Shown: positions 2 through 64,000, counted from the first letter of the stretch. The stretch is DNA of 64,000 nt from an uncultured Candidatus Saccharibacteria bacterium (GCA_964575755.1 CAZNRH010000001.1:17100-81099); one strand, 5' to 3'. The notes: a model not told the origin generated them from the sequence alone. A program made the numbers and translations.

Positions 2-376
2 AATAATAAAAATAAGAGATCAGGGGTTCTCTTCCAAGGACCTTTCAAAGCGATTCATATAGACTCAAATAAATACCTTTTACATTTAAGTGCATACGTG
101 AATCTCAACGATAAGGTTCATAAATTCGGCGGTCCGACTGCCGAATTAATAAAATCAAGTTGGAATGAATATGTTCAAGGAAGTAAAAGTAGTCAAAAGT
201 CAGATAAAAGAATATGCTCTACTGATATAATCCTTGAACAATTTAATAATTCCAAGGAATACGAATTATTTGCAAGGGATTCTCTTAAGGAAATTCTAAA
301 ACATAAAGAGGAAGACGATTCCTCTCAAGAAACTGAGTCCGCAGACCAGGAATTGAACCAAATGTTATTAGAATAG
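2..376 (+). CDS. IS200-like / REP-associated tyrosine (Y1, HUH) transposase, C-terminal fragment; the 5' end lies outside the window
   Basis: The reading frame is open from nt 2. Its translation NNKNKRSGVLFQGPFKAIHIDSNKYLLHLSAYVNLNDKVHKF... aligns with the C-terminal halves of the complete paralogs at 33639-34304 and 47358-48029 (shared YLLHLSAY(V/I) catalytic-Tyr region and SSWNEY motif). Confidence 0.55.
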   Translation, partial: NNKNKRSGVLFQGPFKAIHIDSNKYLLHLSAYVNLNDKVHKFGGPTAELIKSSWNEYVQGSKSSQKSDKRICSTDIILEQFNNSKEYELFARDSLKEILKHKEEDDSSQETESADQELNQMLLE

Positions 377-27229: not shown

Positions 27230-27371
27230 CACAAAAATATTTTATAATGAATTGTGTTTGCATACTTCGCGTTCGATAATATAAGTAACTTCTCTAACGC
27301 GTTACAACTATTTCTTTTGTACAAAAGGGAAGACGTGGTCGTTATTACTCAAACTATTTAAATCAAACTTC

Positions 27372-27560
27372 ATGGCAGCAAAAAAACGAAAAGTTGCAAA
27401 ACGAAAAGTTGCAAAGCGAAAGCCAGCAAAACGTAAAGCAGCAAAGAGGAAGCCTGCAAAGCGTAAAGCAGCTAAACGAAAGCCTGCAAAGCGTAAGGCA
27501 GCAAAAAGGAAGCCTGCAAAGCGTAAGGCAGCAAAAAGGACCACCCGACGACGACGATAG
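27372..27560 (+). CDS. Lysine/alanine-rich histone H1-like (Hc1/AlgP-tail-like) DNA-binding protein
   Basis: 62 aa of KRK(P/V)AK(R)KAA decapeptide repeats. Built from ~30-nt tandem DNA repeats. The two antisense ORFs are low complexity and are rejected. Confidence 0.55.
   Translation: MAAKKRKVAKRKVAKRKPAKRKAAKRKPAKRKAAKRKPAKRKAAKRKPAKRKAAKRTTRRRR
27399..27545 (+). repeat. Tandem ~30-nt repeats (aaacg[a/t]aagc[c/a]gcaaagcg...) encoding the KRKPAKRKAA units
   Basis: Visible periodicity: gcaaaacgtaaagcagcaaagaggaagcct / gcaaagcgtaaagcagctaaacgaaagcct / gcaaagcgtaaggcagcaaaaaggaagcct. Confidence 0.6.
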
Positions 27561-27751: not shown

Positions 27752-30286
27752 ATGATTTTTCTAAAAAAACTGTTTACAGTAGACGAACACAAGAAAGAGC
27801 TCAAAAAGCTTAGTCCTATTGTTGAAAAAATTAATGGACTTGAGGAGTCTTTTAGTGTTCTTTCTGATTCAGATTTAAAAAACAAAACGGAAGAGTTTAA
27901 AAAGCGCCTTATGGAGGGTGAGTCATTAGACGACATACTTCCAGAAGCATTTGCCGCAGTAAGAGAAGCCGCTAAGAGAACACTTGATCAAAGACATTTC
28001 GATGTACAACTTCTTGGGGGTATTACCTTACATAAGGGAAATATTTCAGAAATGAGAACAGGAGAAGGAAAGACTCTTGTAGCAACACTCCCTGCATATT
28101 TGAACGCATTGTCAGGCCTTGGGGTGCATGTAGTTACAGTAAACGACTACCTTTCAAGACGTGACGGCGTTTGGATGGGACAGATTTATACATTTCTAGG
28201 TTTGTCGGTTGGTGTAATAAACCAAGAATCTTCTTTCCTGTATGACAAGACAATCACACAGGATACAAAAGAAGACGAAGAGCGTGACGAATTAGGTTCA
28301 TTTAAAGTCGTGCATGAGTTTTTACGTCCAAGTACAAGGAGAGAGTCATATGAGGCAGACATAACATACGGCACAAACAACGAATTTGGTTTTGATTATC
28401 TTCGCGACAATATCGAATACGAAACAAGTTCACTACGACAACGTGGACACAATTTCGTAGTAGTAGATGAAATAGACTCTATTTTAATAGACGAAGCGCG
28501 GACACCTTTAATCATCTCAGCACCTACAGCAGATCCAGAAAACCTGTATGCAATGTTTGCAGGAATAGTAGCTAATCTTAAAATAGAAGAAGACTTTGTT
28601 GTAGATGAGAAACAAAAGGCTATTTCACTAACAGATACAGGAATAGAAAAAACAGAAAAGATATTAGGTATAGATAATATTTACACAGATAAAGGAGTGA
28701 AGTATGTACACCACCTAGAAACTGCAGTTCGAGCTAAGGCACTATTTGATAAAGATAAAGAATATGTCGTAAAAGACGATGAGGTCGTTATTGTAGATGA
28801 GTTTACAGGGCGGCTTCAGCCAGGACGTCGTTGGTCTGAGGGCCTCCATCAGGCGATAGAAGCAAAAGAAGGCGTGTCAGTTCAAAAAGAATCACGTACA
28901 TTCGCATCTATTACATACCAAAACTATTTCAGACTATACAACAAGCTTGCAGGTATGACAGGTACAGCGCTCACATCTTCAGAAGAGTTTTATAAAGTGT
29001 ACGGTCTTACAGTGGTATCAATACCAACCAATGTAGATCCAAAGAGATTAGACCAAGAAGATCTAATCTATCAGAGTGAAGTAGGAAAGTTTAAAGCAAT
29101 AGCCAAGAAAGTAAAAGAGCTCAACAAAGAAGGTCAACCAGTACTTATAGGTACAGTATCAATAGAGAAAAATGAATTACTCAGTTCTTTTCTTAAAAAA
29201 GAAGGAGTACAGCATAAAACATTAAATGCAAAGAACCACGAAAACGAAGGAGAAATCATCGCGCAGTCAGGAAGTAAGGGTAATGTAACCATAGCCACAA
29301 ACATGGCAGGGCGCGGAGTCGATATCAAACTTGGTGGAAACCCAGGTGGAGAAGAAGAATATGAGGAAGTAAAAAAGCTCGGCGGGCTCTTTGTACTCGG
29401 CACAGAGCGCCATGAAGCACGGCGTATAGACAACCAATTACGTGGACGTTCAGGAAGACAGGGTGACCCAGGAGAAACTCAGTTTTTTGTTTCCCTAGAA
29501 GACTCACTTATGCGAGTGTTCGCTTCAGATATGATTAAGCGTATGATGGGGCGTTTTGGCATACCAGAAGATCAACCAATAGAAAATAAAATGATTACGC
29601 GTTCGCTTGAGTCAGCACAGACAAAGATAGAAGGTTTTCATTTTGATTCACGAAAACACGTACTGCAGTATGACGACATTTTAAATCAACAAAGAACAAT
29701 TATATATAAAAGAAGAAGGGGAATATTACAAGGAGAAAAAAACGATGTATTACTTGCTATAGACAGTGTTATAGGGGGAGATACACACCTACTTAAAACA
29801 GTTGGAGATAAAAAAGAGTTGTTAGGGGAAGACGAGTTTGTTTCTACAGTACGAAGAATGCTGCTGCAAACAATCGATATGCTGTGGGTAGAGCATCTTG
29901 AGATGATGGATTACATGCGTTCAAGTGTAAATCTACGTGCATATGGTCAGCGCGACCCACTTGTAGAATACAAAAAGGAGGGATTGCGTATGTTTAAAGA
30001 GATGGAAGAGTCATACAAACATCAAATCAGAAGCGTATTACCGAATATCGGTGTAAACGCATTCGTAAAAGAAGAACAGAAAATGAAAGAAGTCCACGAT
30101 AGTGCAAAACTAATCAGTAGTAACGTACAAAAGAACGGCCCAACTGATCCTTTAAAGAATACAAATAAAATAGGTAGAAACGACATGGTTACAATTACAG
30201 ACGGTAAAGATACAAAAGAAATGAAGTACAAAAAAGCACAACATCTTATAGAAAGTGGCGAGTGGAGTATAAAAAATGAAGAGTGA
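27752..30286 (+). CDS. secA: Preprotein translocase ATPase SecA
   Basis: MRTGEGKTLVATLPAYLNAL Walker A, DEAD-like helicase motifs, LGGLFVLGTERHEARRIDNQLRGRSGRQGDPG. No C-terminal zinc finger. Confidence 0.95.
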   Translation: MIFLKKLFTVDEHKKELKKLSPIVEKINGLEESFSVLSDSDLKNKTEEFKKRLMEGESLDDILPEAFAAVREAAKRTLDQRHFDVQLLGGITLHKGNISEMRTGEGKTLVATLPAYLNALSGLGVHVVTVNDYLSRRDGVWMGQIYTFLGLSVGVINQESSFLYDKTITQDTKEDEERDELGSFKVVHEFLRPSTRRESYEADITYGTNNEFGFDYLRDNIEYETSSLRQRGHNFVVVDEIDSILIDEARTPLIISAPTADPENLYAMFAGIVANLKIEEDFVVDEKQKAISLTDTGIEKTEKILGIDNIYTDKGVKYVHHLETAVRAKALFDKDKEYVVKDDEVVIVDEFTGRLQPGRRWSEGLHQAIEAKEGVSVQKESRTFASITYQNYFRLYNKLAGMTGTALTSSEEFYKVYGLTVVSIPTNVDPKRLDQEDLIYQSEVGKFKAIAKKVKELNKEGQPVLIGTVSIEKNELLSSFLKKEGVQHKTLNAKNHENEGEIIAQSGSKGNVTIATNMAGRGVDIKLGGNPGGEEEYEEVKKLGGLFVLGTERHEARRIDNQLRGRSGRQGDPGETQFFVSLEDSLMRVFASDMIKRMMGRFGIPEDQPIENKMITRSLESAQTKIEGFHFDSRKHVLQYDDILNQQRTIIYKRRRGILQGEKNDVLLAIDSVIGGDTHLLKTVGDKKELLGEDEFVSTVRRMLLQTIDMLWVEHLEMMDYMRSSVNLRAYGQRDPLVEYKKEGLRMFKEMEESYKHQIRSVLPNIGVNAFVKEEQKMKEVHDSAKLISSNVQKNGPTDPLKNTNKIGRNDMVTITDGKDTKEMKYKKAQHLIESGEWSIKNEE

Positions 30287-30312
30287 ATGTTCGAAGCTAA
30301 GCTTCGAACATT
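30286..30312 (+). repeat. REP-like palindrome aatgttcgaagct-a-agcttcgaacatt
   Basis: Perfect 13-bp arms. Overlaps the last base of the secA stop codon. Confidence 0.6.
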
Positions 30313-30412
30313 TTAAACAAACAAGGACATTCGATGTTCATAAATCAAAAAAATATGAGATCAAAAGAAGAATTGCATCATTTTAATTGCAAAGAGTGCG
30401 GTAAATGGTAGA

Positions 30413-30435
30413 TGTTCGAAGCTTAGCTTCGAACA
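30413..30435 (+). repeat. REP-like palindrome tgttcgaagct-t-agcttcgaaca (inverted partner of 30286)
   Basis: Same family. Its centre is the reverse complement of the first copy. The pair brackets a 100-nt spacer. Confidence 0.6.
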
Positions 30436-30477
30436 CTCTGAACAAGATTGTTCGTTTTCTGTTATACTGCTTTATAT

Positions 30478-33573: not shown

Positions 33574-33612
33574 CATCATAATGTGCGAAGCTTAGCTTCG
33601 CACATTATGATG
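33574..33612 (+). repeat. 39-nt perfect palindrome catcataatgtgcgaagct-t-agcttcgcacattatgatg
   Basis: 19-bp arms. Starts 4 nt after the obg stop codon. Confidence 0.65.
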
Positions 33613-33638
33613 ATAATTACATGGTAGTATAAATCTAT

Positions 33639-34309: not shown

Positions 34310-34340
34310 AAAATGTGCGAAGCTTAGCTTCGCACATTTT
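34310..34340 (+). repeat. 31-nt palindrome aaaatgtgcgaagct-t-agcttcgcacatttt
   Basis: Same core as the left palindrome. Starts 6 nt after the transposase stop. Confidence 0.65.
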
Positions 34341-34434
34341 GATCAAAGTACACTTTGTTTTTTGATAGAGGGAATAGAGTCGTAATAGTGAAGTAGTGGA
34401 AGAGGATGGGAGTATTTGTTATAGTATTCCTACA

Positions 34435-47311: not shown

Positions 47312-47352
47312 CATCATATCACTTGGAGGTTCGACCTCCAAGTGATATGATG
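47312..47352 (+). repeat. 41-nt palindrome catcatatcacttggaggt-tcg-acctccaagtgatatgatg
   Basis: 19-bp perfect arms. Its outer catcata...tatgatg arms are shared with the 33574 palindrome. Confidence 0.65.
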
Positions 47353-47357
47353 TTTCT

Positions 47358-48029
47358 ATGCGTAAAACACCTTTTATAAACGGAGAGTTTTATCATCTTT
47401 ACAATCGTGGTGTAGACAAAAGAAATACTTTTGAGGACCAAGAAGATGTTAATAGATTTTTTCAAAGTATGGAAGAATTTAATGTAGTCGAGCCAGTGGG
47501 GAGTATTTATGAAAATTCATTCAGAAAAAAGAACAAACTTGGAGGTCGAACCTCCAAGTTAGATAAGTTAGTAGAATTTGTTTGTTATTGTATTAATCCT
47601 AATCATTATCATTTTATAGTGTCGCAAACTAGAGACAACGGCATTAGTGAATTTATGAAAAGACTGTCAGGGGGATATACATATTATTTTAATAATAAAA
47701 ACAAAAGATCAGGATCCCTTTTTCAAGGTACATTTAAATCTGTTCACATAGACTCAAATGAGTACCTACTACATTTAAGTGCTTATGTAAATTTAAATAA
47801 CAAAGTACATAAACTTAATAGTTCATCCTATAAGTTAGTGAGATCAAGTTGGAATGAATATATAGAGAGGAATAAAAAAAGACAAGCTGATTTTTGCGAG
47901 AAAAGTATTGTTTTAGGTCAATTTAAAAACCCCTCAGAATATAAAGTTTTTGCAGAAAATTCTTTGAATGATATTTTATACCACAAGTCTCAGAAGGAAA
48001 TAGGGTCTCTAATTATAGAAAAATTATAA
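47358..48029 (+). CDS. IS200-like / REP-associated tyrosine transposase (RAYT-like, HUH Y1)
   Basis: GEFYHLYNRGVDKRNTF, HuH INPNHYHFIV, catalytic-Tyr region YLLHLSAYVNLN. Paralog of 33639-34304 and of the 5' fragment at 2-376. Confidence 0.6.
   Translation: MRKTPFINGEFYHLYNRGVDKRNTFEDQEDVNRFFQSMEEFNVVEPVGSIYENSFRKKNKLGGRTSKLDKLVEFVCYCINPNHYHFIVSQTRDNGISEFMKRLSGGYTYYFNNKNKRSGSLFQGTFKSVHIDSNEYLLHLSAYVNLNNKVHKLNSSSYKLVRSSWNEYIERNKKRQADFCEKSIVLGQFKNPSEYKVFAENSLNDILYHKSQKEIGSLIIEKL
47536..47560 (+). repeat. REP palindrome aacttggaggt-cga-acctccaagtt inside the transposase ORF (encodes KLGGRTSKL)
   Basis: Same family as the flanking palindromes. Lies in-frame within the CDS at a position where the paralog 33639 has unrelated sequence. 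Confidence 0.6.
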
Positions 48030-48052: not shown

Positions 48053-48079
48053 CTACTTGGAGGTTCGACCTCCAAGTAG
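48053..48079 (+). repeat. 27-nt palindrome ctacttggaggt-tcg-acctccaagtag
   Basis: 12-bp arms. Starts 24 nt after the transposase stop. Confidence 0.65.
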
Positions 48080-56070: not shown

Positions 56071-56150
56071 ATCAGGTTAATAATCTTTAAACCAAGTTAA
56101 TAATCTATAAATAAGTTACGAATTGGGTAAGACTACATCTCATATAAAAC

Positions 56151-56168
56151 CTTACGATATATCGTAAG
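56151..56168. repeat. Palindrome cttacgatatatcgtaag (copy 1 of 3)
   Basis: Perfect 18-nt palindrome preceded by aaac. Confidence 0.6.
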
Positions 56169-56214
56169 AAATCAAAGAAAAAAATAACCAAAGAAAAAAA
56201 TAACAGCAAAAACA

Positions 56215-56240
56215 AAACCTCACGATATATCGTAAGGTTT
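56215..56240. repeat. Palindrome aaacctcacgatatatcgtaaggttt (copy 2); probable bidirectional terminator
   Basis: One mismatch in the arms. Lies 7 nt beyond the stop of the minus-strand gene. T-runs on both strands. Confidence 0.6.
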
Positions 56241-56246
56241 TGGAAT

Positions 56247-56648
56247 TTACAATTCGTCAATAAACTTTTTAAAGGATTTTTTCTTGCCAGTGAAAGCTAG
56301 AGCGACAATAGATTCAAGAAGAGCATCTAAAGACCCTTCTTTGCTATTCTTCCAAACCCAATCTGTAGTGTGTTTGTATTTACCAAACTCAACAGCTAAC
56401 GAGAAACGTTTAGCAGTTGAAGGACTTACTCCTAATAATTCACTTATTTTATATAAAGAAACTCCTTTTCTTATAAGAAGTAACATCCCAATACGTTTAG
56501 CAAGCATTATAGTTTCTGTTTCGGTTAATAATTCCTCAAGAACCAGAGCACGTTTTTTAGATCCAGTATCTCTAAGTAATGTGTAAAAATGTTTTTCTAG
56601 ACCCTTCTTTATATCGGCATCGAGTTTCTTTTGTGAAATATGTGGCAT
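56247..56648 (-). CDS. Small HTH DNA-binding protein (TrpR-like YerC/YecD-type), putative
   Basis: 133 aa. LYKISELLGVSPSTAKRFS is an HTH-like segment. It is the only minus-strand gene here, flanked on both sides by the same palindrome. Confidence 0.4.
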   Translation of the reverse strand: MPHISQKKLDADIKKGLEKHFYTLLRDTGSKKRALVLEELLTETETIMLAKRIGMLLLIRKGVSLYKISELLGVSPSTAKRFSLAVEFGKYKHTTDWVWKNSKEGSLDALLESIVALAFTGKKKSFKKFIDEL

Positions 56649-56652
56649 ATAT

Positions 56653-56678
56653 AAACCTTACGATATATCGTAAGGTTT
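56653..56678. repeat. Palindrome aaaccttacgatatatcgtaaggttt (copy 3), in the 5' region of the minus-strand HTH gene
   Basis: Perfect 26-nt palindrome 5 nt upstream of the start codon. Followed by the same ggttttggaat tail as copy 2. Confidence 0.6.
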
Positions 56679-56749
56679 TGGAATAGTACAGATAGTCTAA
56701 GTTGTGTATAATTATTTAAATAAAGATAAAATATAATATAAAACTTATT

Positions 56750-57769: not shown

Positions 57770-58447
57770 ATGACAGAAACACTTCAAGTTAGAAAACGAG
57801 AGGGAAAAAAGTCCCTAAAGCAATTGCGAGGAGGCAGTGAAATGCCAGCAGTTTTTTATGGACCTAAGGAAGAAACCACATCAATCGCTATTAATAAAGA
57901 CACATTTAATAAACTCTGGAGAGAAGCAGGAGAGTCAACAGTGATTGAACTTAAAGGAGATGGAATTGAAAACGAGGTCCTTATACACAAGGTTGATGTA
58001 CATCCAGTTACTGGAGAGCCTAGACACGCTGACTTTTATGTTATGGAGAAAGGTAAGAAGGTTACCATTAAGGTTCCACTTGAATTCGTAGGAGTTTCTC
58101 CTGCTGTAAAAGAGCTTGGAGGAGTCTTGGTTAAAGTAATGCACGAAATTGAAATCGAGGTACTTCCAAAAGATTTACCACAGAATATTGAAGTAAGTAT
58201 TGAATCACTAGAAAATTTTGAAAGTCACATACTAGCAAAAGATATTGCAATTCCAGAAAGCGCAGAATTGATTATAGATGGAGAAGAAACAGTTGCCCTT
58301 GTAAACGAAGCAAAGGAAGAAGAAGAGCCAGAAGTAGAAGCTTCAATTGACGACATAGAAGTAGAAGAGAAAGGTAAGAAAGAGGATGACGATTCCTCGG
58401 AAGGAATCGCGTCCAAAGACGTTAAACAAGAATCTACTGACGCCTAA
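57770..58447 (+). CDS. rplY: 50S ribosomal protein L25 / general stress protein Ctc, with an acidic C-terminal extension
   Basis: L25 N-terminal domain (LQVRKREGKKSLKQLRGGSEMPAVFYG) and Ctc-type beta-barrel. The last ~16 codons derive from a repeated palindromic element. Confidence 0.8.
   Translation: MTETLQVRKREGKKSLKQLRGGSEMPAVFYGPKEETTSIAINKDTFNKLWREAGESTVIELKGDGIENEVLIHKVDVHPVTGEPRHADFYVMEKGKKVTIKVPLEFVGVSPAVKELGGVLVKVMHEIEIEVLPKDLPQNIEVSIESLENFESHILAKDIAIPESAELIIDGEETVALVNEAKEEEEPEVEASIDDIEVEEKGKKEDDDSSEGIASKDVKQESTDA
58385..58429 (+). repeat. 45-nt element gatgacgattcctcggaaggaatcgcgtccaaagacgttaaacaa inside the rplY 3' end
   Basis: Near-identical to 62712-62756 in rpsB (2 substitutions). 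Contains the inverted repeat cgattcc/ggaatcg. Confidence 0.75.
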
Positions 58448-58475
58448 TCTAAATTAAAAAGAATAATCTCAATAT

Positions 58476-58505
58476 AAAAATACTCCAGTATACTGGAGTA
58501 TTTTT
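58476..58505 (+). terminator. Rho-independent terminator (tactccagta-tactggagta + T5)
   Basis: 10-bp perfect stem followed by ttttt, 29 nt after the rplY stop. Confidence 0.65.
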
Positions 58506-58601
58506 ATATTGTTGAGTGGATAGTATGGTTAATAATTTTACAAAAGTTTTACCACTACGTATTTCGACAAATGTACTATATTGGTATAATAACTATTAAT
58601 C

Positions 58602-60880: not shown

Positions 60881-61858
60881 ATGGATAAAGAAACACTAAA
60901 AAACTACCGTGAAAACCACAAGACGGCTTTTCTGGTGGAACAATATGACAAGCTAGTAAAGCAAGAAGAAGAGACAAAAGAGATGTCAAAAGATCCTGAG
61001 GTTATGGAGTTAGCGACTGATGAGCTTAATGCAATAAAAGTGCAACAAGACGAGCTTGTTAAACAAATGGAGCTTATAACAAAATCAGATGAGGAAGAAG
61101 AGAAGTTTCCAAATGAATTAATTCTTGAGGTGCGTGCAGGGGCAGGAGGCGAAGAAGCCGCCATCTTTGCTGAACAATTGGCATTTATGTATGAGAGATA
61201 TTCAGAGAAGCAGGGGTGGCAGTACAGGGTAATAAATGAATCAAAGAGCTCTCTTGGTGGATACAAAGAGGTGGTGGTTGAAATTCGCGGTAAAGATTCT
61301 TATAAAAAACTTAGACACGAGACAGGGGTGCATCGAGTACAACGTATCCCATCGACTGAAAAACAAGGTCGTATACACACCTCAACTGCTTCAGTAGCCA
61401 TATTACCTATTCGTAAGAAGGCAAAAGTTGAACTTAATCCCGCTGACCTAGAAATTGAGTTTTCTCGTTCTGGTGGAGCGGGTGGGCAAAATGTGAATAA
61501 GGTCGAGACAGCTGTTAGGGTTATACATAAGCCCACTAGTATTGATGTCCGTAGCACATCAGAGAGAAGTCAACAGAAAAACCGCGAGCAAGCAATGAGT
61601 ATACTACAAGCGAAATTACAACTCTTAGCAGAAGAAGAGCAAGCTCAGAAAATAGCAAAAGAGCGTAAAGAGCAAGTAAAAACAGCAGATCGCTCAGAAA
61701 AGATAAGGACGTATAACTTCTCGCAAGACCGTATAACCGACCACAGAATAAAGAAATCTTGGTCGAATATAGTTGGTGTTATGGGAGGTGAGCTTAATGA
61801 CATAATTGAGTCATTTGACGATTATGATACCTCGCAAGGTATCATGTCCACAGACTAA
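60881..61858 (+). CDS. prfA: Peptide chain release factor 1
   Basis: GGQ motif ([18 protein letters not shown]). P(S/A)T tripeptide region [14 protein letters not shown] is typical of RF1. No RF2-type frameshift site. Confidence 0.8.
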
Positions 61859-61991
61859 GCAAAAATCGCGTCTGATATTTCGCAAAATATCATGTCCACA
61901 GACCGGAGACGTGTTAAAAGATACGTAAGACTATGATACTATACATATTGCGAAAGTACCCTTTATTTGCTAGACTCTTCAAGTATTAACT

Positions 61992-62798
61992 ATGGAAGAA
62001 ACAAAAACTAAAACAACAACAGGAGATATAATCGGTTCAATGTTTGAAGTTGGTGCTCATTTTGCGTACAGCAAATCCCGTCGACATCCGACGGTAAGTT
62101 CGTATATATTTGGGACAAAGGACAAGGTAGAGATTTTTGACCTAGAAAAGACAAAAGGTCTCCTTGATAATGCCCTAGAGTTTGTTGAGAAGCTTTCAAA
62201 AGAGGGTAAAACTGTACTATTTGTAGCTGGCAAGAACGAGGCTCGTAATATAATAAAAAGCACAGCTCTTTCTCTAGATATGCCTTATGTAACTGGACGA
62301 TGGATTGGCGGGACTCTTACTAATTTCGAACAAATCAAAAAACAAATATTACGTCTTGAAGAATTAACCTCTGAAAAAGAAAAAGGCGAGCTAGCAAAGA
62401 AATACAATAAAAAGGAGTTAGTCATGCTTAATCGCGAAATGGAATCTCTAGAGAATATATTTGGCGGACTTATTTCAATGAAATCATTGCCGTCTGCACT
62501 TATTGTTATAGACACCAAGCGTGAATACATCGCAGTGGAAGAAGCAAAAAAGAAGGGGATACCAGTTATTGCATTAATGAACTCAGACTGCAGTCTCTTG
62601 AGTGCGGATTATCCAATTTTGGCAAACGACGCTTCAATGAAGAGCATTGTATTTTTTGTTAATCTAATCTCAGATACATACAAAAAGAATAAATTTGCTG
62701 GTAAGGCTGTTGATGACGATTCCTCGCAAGGAATCGCGTCCGAAGACGTTAAACAAAAGACCATAGAACTCAAGGAGTCAGGGAGTGTATCGAAATAG
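61992..62798 (+). CDS. rpsB: 30S ribosomal protein S2, with a C-terminal extension
   Basis: S2 core (FEVGAHFAYSKSRRHP, VLFVAGK). The C-terminal DDDSSQGIASEDVKQ is encoded by the repeated 45-nt element. Confidence 0.85.
   Translation: MEETKTKTTTGDIIGSMFEVGAHFAYSKSRRHPTVSSYIFGTKDKVEIFDLEKTKGLLDNALEFVEKLSKEGKTVLFVAGKNEARNIIKSTALSLDMPYVTGRWIGGTLTNFEQIKKQILRLEELTSEKEKGELAKKYNKKELVMLNREMESLENIFGGLISMKSLPSALIVIDTKREYIAVEEAKKKGIPVIALMNSDCSLLSADYPILANDASMKSIVFFVNLISDTYKKNKFAGKAVDDDSSQGIASEDVKQKTIELKESGSVSK
62712..62756 (+). repeat. 45-nt element gatgacgattcctcgcaaggaatcgcgtccgaagacgttaaacaa inside the rpsB 3' end
   Basis: Near-identical to 58385-58429 in rplY. A third, partial copy lies at 311-334 in the RAYT fragment. 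Confidence 0.75.
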
Positions 62799-63867: not shown

Positions 63868-63940
63868 GCCACCTTAGCTCAGTTGGTAGAGCAACTCACT
63901 TGTAATGAGTAGGTCGTGGGTTCGAATCCCTCAGGTGGCT
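63868..63940 (+). tRNA. tRNA-Thr (anticodon UGU)
   Basis: Cloverleaf: acceptor gccacct/aggtggc, D-arm tagctcagttggtagagca, anticodon stem-loop actca-cttgtaa-tgagt (anticodon TGT), T-arm gtgggttcgaatccctc. No encoded CCA. Confidence 0.85.
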
Positions 63941-64000
63941 CAGAGTGTTTTACGAGGAGGCACACTGAGAAGTGTGCCTGCGCACACTTCGTAGGGATTC

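Follow-up and report, generated by a model that had tools for sequence, protein, structure and literature searches.

A dispersed palindromic cassette lying in frame in core genes of an uncultured Candidatus Saccharibacteria bacterium and its relatives

Cassette copies in the window

The genes for ribosomal proteins L25 (rplY) and S2 (rpsB) of an uncultured Candidatus Saccharibacteria bacterium end in nearly the same DNA, a short palindromic cassette that recurs in other genes of this genome and of related ones. Both genes lie in the 64,000-nt stretch analysed here (GCA_964575755.1, CAZNRH010000001.1:17100-81099; hereafter the window). On the + strand, the two 45-nt segments occupy 58385-58429 and 62712-62756; they disagree at 2 of their 45 positions, and 100 shuffles yielded no match. 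This agrees with the first-pass annotation of this DNA, which had given 43/45 identical positions, and the identity covers synonymous sites too. Both segments lie in frame near the 3' ends of their genes, where they encode DDDSSEGIASKDVKQ and DDDSSQGIASEDVKQ, and the identity of the two hosts was confirmed by Pfam. The Pfam domains end at residue 181 of 225 in L25 and at residue 231 of 268 in S2. The inverted repeat described earlier was likewise found, as an 8-bp stem (CGATTCCT/AGGAATCG) closed by a 4-nt loop.

Three copies had been claimed for the window. All three are present, but two more at the gene for release factor 1 (RF1, identified by Pfam) had been overlooked, at 61817-61858 and 61874-61903. 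Repeat finding and a profile search gave exactly five copies, all on the + strand (Table 1). The copy placed at 311-334 and described as partial is real, but it is in fact a decayed full-length cassette with a broken hairpin, which folds no better than shuffled sequence. The conserved tail of the L25 and S2 copies also passes nucleotide 45, ending near 58438 and near 62765, respectively.

Table 1. Cassettes and transposase genes in the window (slashes separate the parts of a cassette)
Feature	Position	Strand	Context	Sequence
L25 C-terminal-tail cassette	58385..58438	+	gene 57770-58447; hairpin 58390-58409	GAT GAC / GAT TCC TCG GAA GGA ATC GCG TCC AAA GAC / GTT AAA CAA GAA TCT ACT; translation DDDSSEGIASKDVKQEST
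S2 C-terminal-tail cassette	62712..62765	+	gene 61992-62798; hairpin 62717-62736	GAT GAC / GAT TCC TCG CAA GGA ATC GCG TCC GAA GAC / GTT AAA CAA AAG ACC ATA
RF1 cassette unit (last 13 codons and stop)	61817..61858	+	gene 60881-61858; hairpin 61824-61845	GAC GAT TAT GAT ACC TCG CAA GGT ATC ATG TCC ACA GAC TAA
RF1 array, non-coding continuation	61859..61925	+	half unit, full unit and tail-module-like stretch	half unit GCA AAA ATC GCG TCT; tail-module-like CGGAGACGTGTTAAAAGATACG
Decayed full-length cassette	311..361	+	C-terminal tail of Y1_Tnp gene #1; nhmmer E 0.013	GAA GAC GAT TCC TCT CAA GAA ACT GAG TCC GCA GAC CAG GAA TTG AAC CAA
Y1_Tnp (IS200-like HUH transposase) gene #1, 3' part	2..376	+	full gene L001:5836-6561, 241 aa, completed by contig L001	
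Y1_Tnp gene #2	47358..48029	+	different palindrome at 47321-47343 and 48055-48077; internal copy 47537-47559	

Cassette anatomy and the hairpin

When all arrays are listed in codon register, the cassette consists of three parts, namely a lead-in, one or more units and a non-palindromic tail. The lead-in is GAC GAT, often GAC GAT TCT. The unit is an 18-nt palindrome, GAT NNN TCG CAA N'N'N' ATC, followed by RYG TCY, which makes 24 nt; a 33-nt form carries an extra NNN GAC SGA TCA. The tail reads (CAA GAC CAG) GAC GTT AAA CAA GAA WCN ACN and is translated DVKQE[ST]T. Units stack in head-to-tail arrays and abut without spacers, so that cassettes measure about 54-100 nt. In some copies the palindrome is longer, with 13-14 bp (GGACAYGAT...ATCRTGTCC). 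Immediately 5' of the stem, CGTCT or TGTCT is found in non-coding and tandem copies, and the L25 and S2 copies differ in this respect, with GATGAC on the 5' side and GCGTCC on the 3' side.

The tail module follows the cassettes of S2, L25, DnaK, S1, DacX, S16, FtsH, UvrD and ScpB. Hence, the GTTAAACAA that L25 and S2 share belongs to the cassette, and the element exceeds 45 nt. The idea that GTTAAACAA is an S2-specific tail, of which L25 holds a copy, was rejected on the same ground.

The RF1 gene illustrates how units pass from coding into non-coding DNA. Beyond its last codons, the array continues with a half unit, a full unit (61874-61903, 48 nt beyond the RF1 copy) and a stretch resembling the tail module, and this continuation keeps the register of the RF1 frame. 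The TAA stop of RF1 stands where the same unit type has CAA elsewhere. The stems of the two RF1 copies (GATACC/GGTATC and GATATT/AATATC) are fully compensated relative to GATTCC/GGAATC.

Folding of the hairpin gave -11.1 kcal/mol as DNA (z -4.7 and -3.4) and -14.8 kcal/mol as RNA (z about -3). Covariation was assessed on 52 distinct units that were picked by their loop and 3' flank alone, the stem not being used. Within this set, 88.7% of the stem cells were paired. Double-sided changes at the three inner pairs occurred in 17, 23 and 12 sequences, amounting to 52 cells compared with 16.5 in shuffles, a value that none of 500 shuffles reached, and sliding the partner by 1-3 columns lowered pairing to 36-58%. 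Variable positions within units are confined to the self-complementary stem bases, and the variants encode S/G, I/N, V/D, T/G and S/R. The TCA/TGA stem variant even contains a stop; it was seen in intergenic DNA, and its TGA serves as the stop codon at the RF1 array of two related loci (L019 and L020). Since compensatory changes in the stem alter the encoded amino acids, it is the palindrome, and not the peptide, that is conserved. Meanwhile, differences within the tail module fall 18/17/25 on the three codon positions, which indicates no clear purifying selection at the peptide level. We also considered genome-specific homogenisation of stem variants, which was not evident, as each of the two better-sampled genomes holds several variants.

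Distribution, host genes and orthologous sites

We scanned public genomes and metagenomes with the pattern GAYNNNTCGSAANNNATCNNGTCCNNAGAC, which does not demand complementarity of the NNN positions. Among 185,579 species-representative genomes, 15 loci matched, 13 of them from a single metagenome-assembled genome (MAG), CAZVBS01. This related genome has 14 strict matches, and thus at least 14 copies. The metagenome scan added 26 further loci. All matches with palindromic NNN positions come from low-GC contigs of the same kind, several of them identical to contigs of the MAG. Seven metagenome and two genome loci that matched the strict pattern were dropped as chance matches, given that their stems are non-palindromic and some of them are GC-rich. 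Viral contigs were scanned twice, with the strict pattern and with the TCTCAA-loop variant, and gave no hit, which leaves a phage origin unsupported. No candidates came from searching a protein database with a 48-aa composite built from the encoded peptide. The nearest named homologues of S2 and L25 are labelled Kaiserbacteria, Paceibacterota or Parcubacteria.

Fourteen gene families of the relatives carry the cassette in frame: PBP2, FtsK, IF3, LepA, FtsH, S1, ScpB, DnaK, L21, S16, a KH-domain protein, a DacX-like protein, SecD and UvrD. Together with L25, S2, RF1 and Y1_Tnp #1 of the window, this makes 18 host families, whose proteins span different cell compartments and whose insertion positions are unrelated. 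The proposal that the element inserts at gene ends holds for the tails of L25, S2 and RF1, but copies are also internal in LepA, FtsH, SecD, PBP2 and the FtsK linker. FtsK carries copies in both linker and tail, and the FtsH copy lies between its two membrane helices. Against the solved EF4, the G domain of LepA shows 34 additional residues, inserted between EF4 residues 71 and 72. That the cassette is tolerated as translated sequence, as had been suggested, is in keeping with its in-frame position in all of these families, from which we predict its translation.

All coding copies are sense-oriented and share one frame (GAT = Asp), though 2 to 4 of the six frames are open in typical cassettes. 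From the alternative frames, peptides that are basic or rich in Cys, Pro or hydrophobic residues would result. The frame-1 peptide (DSSQGIxS..DVKQETT) is acidic, polar and probably disordered. We asked how far a preference for in-frame GAYGAY targets could account for the single frame. In window genes, 47 of 84 GAYGAY hexamers are sense and in frame, so target preference as the sole cause is insufficient: it predicts only about 56% in sense frame 1, and selection or something phase-aware must contribute.

One reading of this regularity is that the encoded peptide, DSSQGIxS...DVKQETT, is itself a selected protein module (a linker, modification site or tag) which has been spread by recombination, the palindrome being secondary. 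Besides the constancy of frame and strand across the host families, this would fit the loop Ser codon, which appears in all four synonymous forms (TCG, TCT, TCC and TCA) while S-Q is kept, and the unit lengths, which are multiples of three even in non-coding arrays. We nevertheless consider it improbable. The stem is maintained at an amino-acid cost (G/N/D/R as well as S/I/V/T), the tail module has no clear excess of third-position differences, and non-coding copies, including the variant with an in-frame TGA, retain the same loop and flanks. Furthermore, a module of this sort is hard to reconcile with hosts in different compartments and unrelated positions, and orthologues without the peptide are common. 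A related reading combines mobility with phase awareness: copying may target in-frame acidic codon runs on the coding strand, or the acidic, Ser-rich peptide may be a selected portable module, serving as linker, recognition tag or modification site, that a mobile palindrome carries to essential proteins. Both variants would account for one frame and orientation in 18 host families despite the other open frames, yet we hold this to be an unlikely account.

About 10 copies are intergenic. Seven of these are in sense orientation, 20-160 nt after a stop codon, one is antisense, and one locus (L047) holds an inverted pair between convergent genes, the only such pair seen. Such positions raise the question of whether the hairpin is a functional nucleic-acid element of gene 3' ends, for instance an mRNA stabiliser like those proposed for repetitive extragenic palindromic (REP) sequences, or a processing or protein-binding site, with translation being incidental. 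The stability of the RNA hairpin, the covariation that maintains the stem and the 7/10 intergenic copies downstream of stops would all agree with this, and known REPs are described in one survey (PMC3733652) as lying mainly just downstream of open reading frames (ORFs) and as thought to act as RNA elements. Even so, we find it doubtful, because many copies are distant from 3' ends (LepA, FtsH, SecD, PBP2 and the FtsK linker) and a hairpin alone would serve in any frame or orientation, unlike the single frame observed. In addition, a strong terminator already lies 30 nt downstream of L25, the sense strand of the cassette shows no T-tract, close orthologues manage well in the absence of the hairpin, and no Rfam family matches it. 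An intrinsic terminator was rejected separately, as no + strand terminator-like call fell on any cassette; the scan's one 19-pair hairpin just downstream of L25 is a palindrome at 58470-58511, reported on the minus strand. In Rfam 15, only a tRNA-Thr passed the gathering score in the window, and no cassette was matched up to E 1.

The history of individual copies could be followed at three syntenic loci of related genomes, namely L019 (the MAG, with S2 82% identical), L021 (76%) and L022 (72%). RF1 has no units in L021 and L022, which thus represent empty sites, two in the window, and eight or more in L019/L020, where the array reaches into the RF1-S2 spacer. S2 has one unit in the window, two in L019, one with a GATGTC/GACATC stem in L021, and in L022 a hairpin-less form that is 12 nt shorter and reads DDSASADVKQ. 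For L25, the loci compared have 0, 1 and 3 units, and the FtsH and ScpB arrays also differ between orthologues. The cassettes are therefore dispersed over unrelated loci, and at orthologous sites they are present or absent and change copy number by whole units of 8 or 11 codons. With such unit lengths, the frames of the hosts stay intact.

The two ribosomal copies differ in age. Among the 120 S2 homologues listed, 3 carry the tail and 117 are without the motif, the hairpin-less form in P0005 being additional. As orthologues share it, the S2 copy is, from these comparisons, ancestral to a small clade and appears to predate the split of the compared genomes. The L25 cassette is absent from the 91%-identical orthologue of the MAG (P0122/L019) and from about 43 other close homologues, and its tail occurs in 2 of about 45, those of the window and of the more distant L021 genome only. 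Hence, the window L25 copy would be a recent acquisition, or L25 a recurrent target. Past GATGAC, window and 91%-identical orthologue can no longer be aligned, which obscures the exact boundaries of this insertion. The comparison of C-termini recommended by the first-pass annotation thus gave a divided answer, in that the L25 tail is not shared by its close orthologue but the S2 tail is shared by orthologues within a small clade. That annotation had held that an ancestral tail and a lack of further genomic copies would overturn its proposal. The S2 tail is indeed old, but further copies are decisively present, with at least 14 strict ones in one related MAG.

Stops that arise inside units turn translated units into 3' non-coding DNA. 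We found CAA changed to TAA in the loop of a unit in the L25 gene of L021, TAA for CAA in RF1 of the window, and TGA in L019. The L25 gene of L021 shows this plainly, its tail having been truncated by a nonsense change. At L021:6650-6720, the TAA stop of this gene lies at the unit loop position that is CAA elsewhere, and an intact unit comes next in the 3' non-coding DNA.

Shared tails could in principle be ancestral or convergent low-complexity protein, or an artefact of assembly. The tails of these ribosomal proteins are generally acidic and of low complexity, and the repeat does disrupt short-read assemblies: the RF1-S2 unit array coincides with an N-run in L019 (9634-9733), and the Logan contigs L002 and L003 begin at window position 61958. 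This explanation is effectively refuted by the 43/45 DNA identity, which includes synonymous sites, by the S2 tail, which independent assemblies reproduce exactly, by dozens of further copies in coding and non-coding DNA, and by the absence of the tail from nearly all homologues. Near-identical assemblies mismatch only inside cassettes (2/2 and 1/1 over about 5 kb, excluding three contig-end differences). These differences, at L020:662-663 relative to L019 and at L045:938 relative to L011, fall in a hairpin arm and in the tail module. Their confinement to cassettes suggests elevated variability, or assembly noise at repeats.

Interpretation and relation to known repeats

Collectively, these data lead us to regard the cassette as probably a lineage-restricted, dispersed and hairpin-forming palindromic minisatellite. 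It would be a DNA-level repeat resembling REPs and the Rickettsia palindromic elements (RPEs), tolerated in the form of translated tails and loops. The proposal of a small palindromic DNA repeat dispersed among unrelated genes is borne out by the 18 host families, the empty and filled sites and the compensatory hairpin changes; from this distribution, we infer that the repeat has been mobile. New copies would arise through DNA-level copying of the whole cassette to new loci. This might be carried out by a hairpin-recognising single-strand enzyme, such as the Y1/HUH transposases of this genome, or result from template switching or from gene conversion where runs of codons are acidic and GAY-rich. 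Array length would then change through replication slippage, and copies would survive only where a harmless frame-1 peptide is read in sense, that is in C-terminal tails, linkers and surface loops.

Several observations weigh against this interpretation. Cassettes have neither terminal inverted repeats nor variable target-site duplications. One frame in 18/18 host families exceeds what random insertion plus an in-frame GAYGAY target preference would give. Intergenic copies are likewise mostly sense-oriented, an arrangement that a function or a strand-specific process would explain no worse than an origin as former tails. The N-terminal cases in S1, L21 and DacX might lie upstream of the true start codons, and the census was built on fetched fragments rather than whole genomes. 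Finally, both Y1_Tnp genes are flanked by other palindromes and no cassette flanks either of them, the only cassette nearby being the decayed one in the tail of gene #1.

As paralogues, the two Y1_Tnp genes share 57% identity, and #2 has no cassette-bearing tail. The first-pass annotation had labelled #1 a REP-associated tyrosine transposase (RAYT). Its match to Pfam Y1_Tnp stands, but its NCBIfam RAYT score of 21.7 bits falls below the cut-off of 80. Each paralogue is bounded by its own perfect palindrome, TTTGGAGACCAGGTCTCCAAA or ACTTGGAGGTTCGACCTCCAAGT. Thus, the arrangement of REP/RAYT systems (REPtron, REPIN), in which a RAYT gene is flanked by the same REP family, was not found here. Y1_Tnp #1 is a candidate for the enzyme that would mobilise cassette hairpins. 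Copies of the palindrome of #1 were observed at L001:5782-5805 and L001:6036-6059. Each Y1_Tnp ORF also contains an in-frame copy of its own flanking palindrome, immediately ahead of the HUH motif at a position shared by both proteins, and similar palindromes occur in L004, L047 and L031/L046.

The architecture of the cassette, with its hairpin, asymmetric ends and orientation bias, is compatible with that of elements derived from IS200/IS605, such as palindrome-associated transposable elements (PATEs). Those elements have subterminal hairpins, lack terminal inverted repeats and target-site duplications, insert strand-specifically next to a short fixed target and are mobilised by Y1 enzymes, and Y1_Tnp genes are present in this genome. 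A miniature transposable element with inverted repeats (MITE) was rejected because the ends are asymmetric (GAC GAT lead-in, GTT AAA CAA GAA tail) and terminal inverted repeats are absent. The ACGTCT...ACGTCC flanks of non-coding copies are identical at every site, and so are not target-site duplications. Guide arrays of the CRISPR or TIGR (tandem interspaced guide RNA) type were also rejected, given that units abut without spacers and arrays lie inside housekeeping ORFs.

The closest parallel is provided by the RPEs (Ogata et al. 2000, 2002), which are described, in the summaries of PMC10969869, PMC1166351 and PMC3733652, as in-frame palindromic insertions in many housekeeping genes. As in those accounts, the cassette is a palindrome of a reduced genome that sits, without breaking the frame, within numerous housekeeping genes unrelated to one another, where it would be translated at tolerated positions; it also has non-coding copies, is lineage-specific and comes without an identified dedicated transposase. 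In-frame occurrence in many unrelated genes is clear from the 18 families and from the LepA G-domain insertion relative to EF4, with translation being predicted. By the same summaries, RPE-1-type elements are single insertions of about 100-150 bp in Rickettsia (Alphaproteobacteria), whereas the cassette has 24- or 33-nt head-to-tail units, a non-palindromic tail and ultra-small CPR/Parcubacteria-like hosts (CPR, Candidate Phyla Radiation). Unit size and host phylum place it outside RPE families 1-10, a placement made on those two features and not on a comparison of RPE sequences.

REPs tagged with CGTC (Di Nocera et al. 2013, PMC3733652), which include dRS3 of Neisseria and RPE-4 and RPE-6 of R. 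conorii, resemble the cassette in their hairpin. As that survey describes them, their stems measure 8-9 bp and their loops 4-5 nt, an unpaired CGTC (or TGTC/CCTC) stands at one end, intragenic copies are on record, and they lack a transposase of their own. The cassette shares with this description the 8-bp stem, the 4-nt loop, the frequent location just downstream of ORFs, the intragenic copies that add residues and the lack of a known dedicated transposase. The CGTC or TGTC that tandem and non-coding copies carry immediately 5' of the stem may correspond to the tag of these REPs; the L25 and S2 copies have GATGAC at that place. The REP consensus is described as opening its stem with A-T pairs (AT at positions 1-2) and closing with a CCA-like tail, from which the cassette would differ in that its own stem starts with (T)GAT and its tail is RYGTCC(A). 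The surveyed REPs are mostly intergenic head-to-head dimers, while cassettes are mostly intragenic or in tails and arranged head to tail, with RYGTCY on both sides of each hairpin. Accordingly, the cassette agrees with REPs as a short palindrome (20-40 nt; 8-9 bp stem, 4-5 nt loop) in many dispersed copies, with 52 distinct units in the fetched loci, but not as predominantly intergenic head-to-head dimers.

Other families of tandem units share some of these traits. Mycobacterial interspersed repetitive units (MIRUs) are 46-101 bp long, occupy the intergenic stretches of operons and are not built around a hairpin. Like these and other variable-number tandem repeats (VNTRs), the cassette has short tandem units at many loci, oriented with the flanking genes, variable in copy number and frame-compatible in length; unlike MIRUs, its units are palindromic and mostly inside ORFs. 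Its head-to-tail units, with a period of 24 or 33 nt and variable between close relatives, are those of a dispersed minisatellite. Palindromic amphipathic repeat coding elements (PARCELs) are likewise tandem coding repeats with dyad symmetry in the DNA, apparently shuffled within genomes. PARCELs, however, are 25-residue amphipathic repeats that form whole ORFs of unknown function, often membrane proteins, whereas the cassette has polar units of 8 or 11 residues that decorate conserved housekeeping proteins. We regard the cassette as a new family of an already known kind of element, set apart by its single-frame rule and its colonisation of core genes.

The window holds other repeats as well. 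A second palindrome family, the 25-nt perfect palindrome ATGTKCGAAGCTWAGCTTCGMACAT, has four copies (30287-30320, 30412-30445, 33581-33614 and 34313-34346), which adjoin + strand genes directly after stop or before start codons. The 26-nt palindrome AAACCTTACGATATATCGTAAGGTTT occurs at 56147-56178, 56215-56246 and 56653-56684, one copy being partial, and brackets a minus-strand gene of 133 aa (56247-56648); it could be an operator or a cassette boundary. At 27362-27541, upstream of an 844-aa ORF (27752-30286), a 15-nt tandem repeat of about 9-12 copies reads as basic (A/P)AKRK-type repeats. At the window edge, immediately after the tRNA-Thr gene (63868-63941), two overlapping 9-bp hairpins followed by GTAG (63958-63990) form a REP-like, GTAG-tagged structure.

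CPR/Patescibacteria genomes are small and usually regarded as repeat-poor. In the window and the related genomes, a small palindromic cassette has settled in core genes that serve translation, division, secretion and protein folding by chaperones, and even in the GTPase domain of LepA, which makes it an independent parallel to the "protein-coding palindromes" of Rickettsia. These findings explain odd C-terminal tails and insertions in the host proteins as well as breaks in MAG assemblies, and they offer a fast-evolving strain marker. Its short units (24 or 33 nt) and its sites, clearly either empty or filled, make the cassette a compact system for studying how such elements spread and are tolerated in essential proteins.

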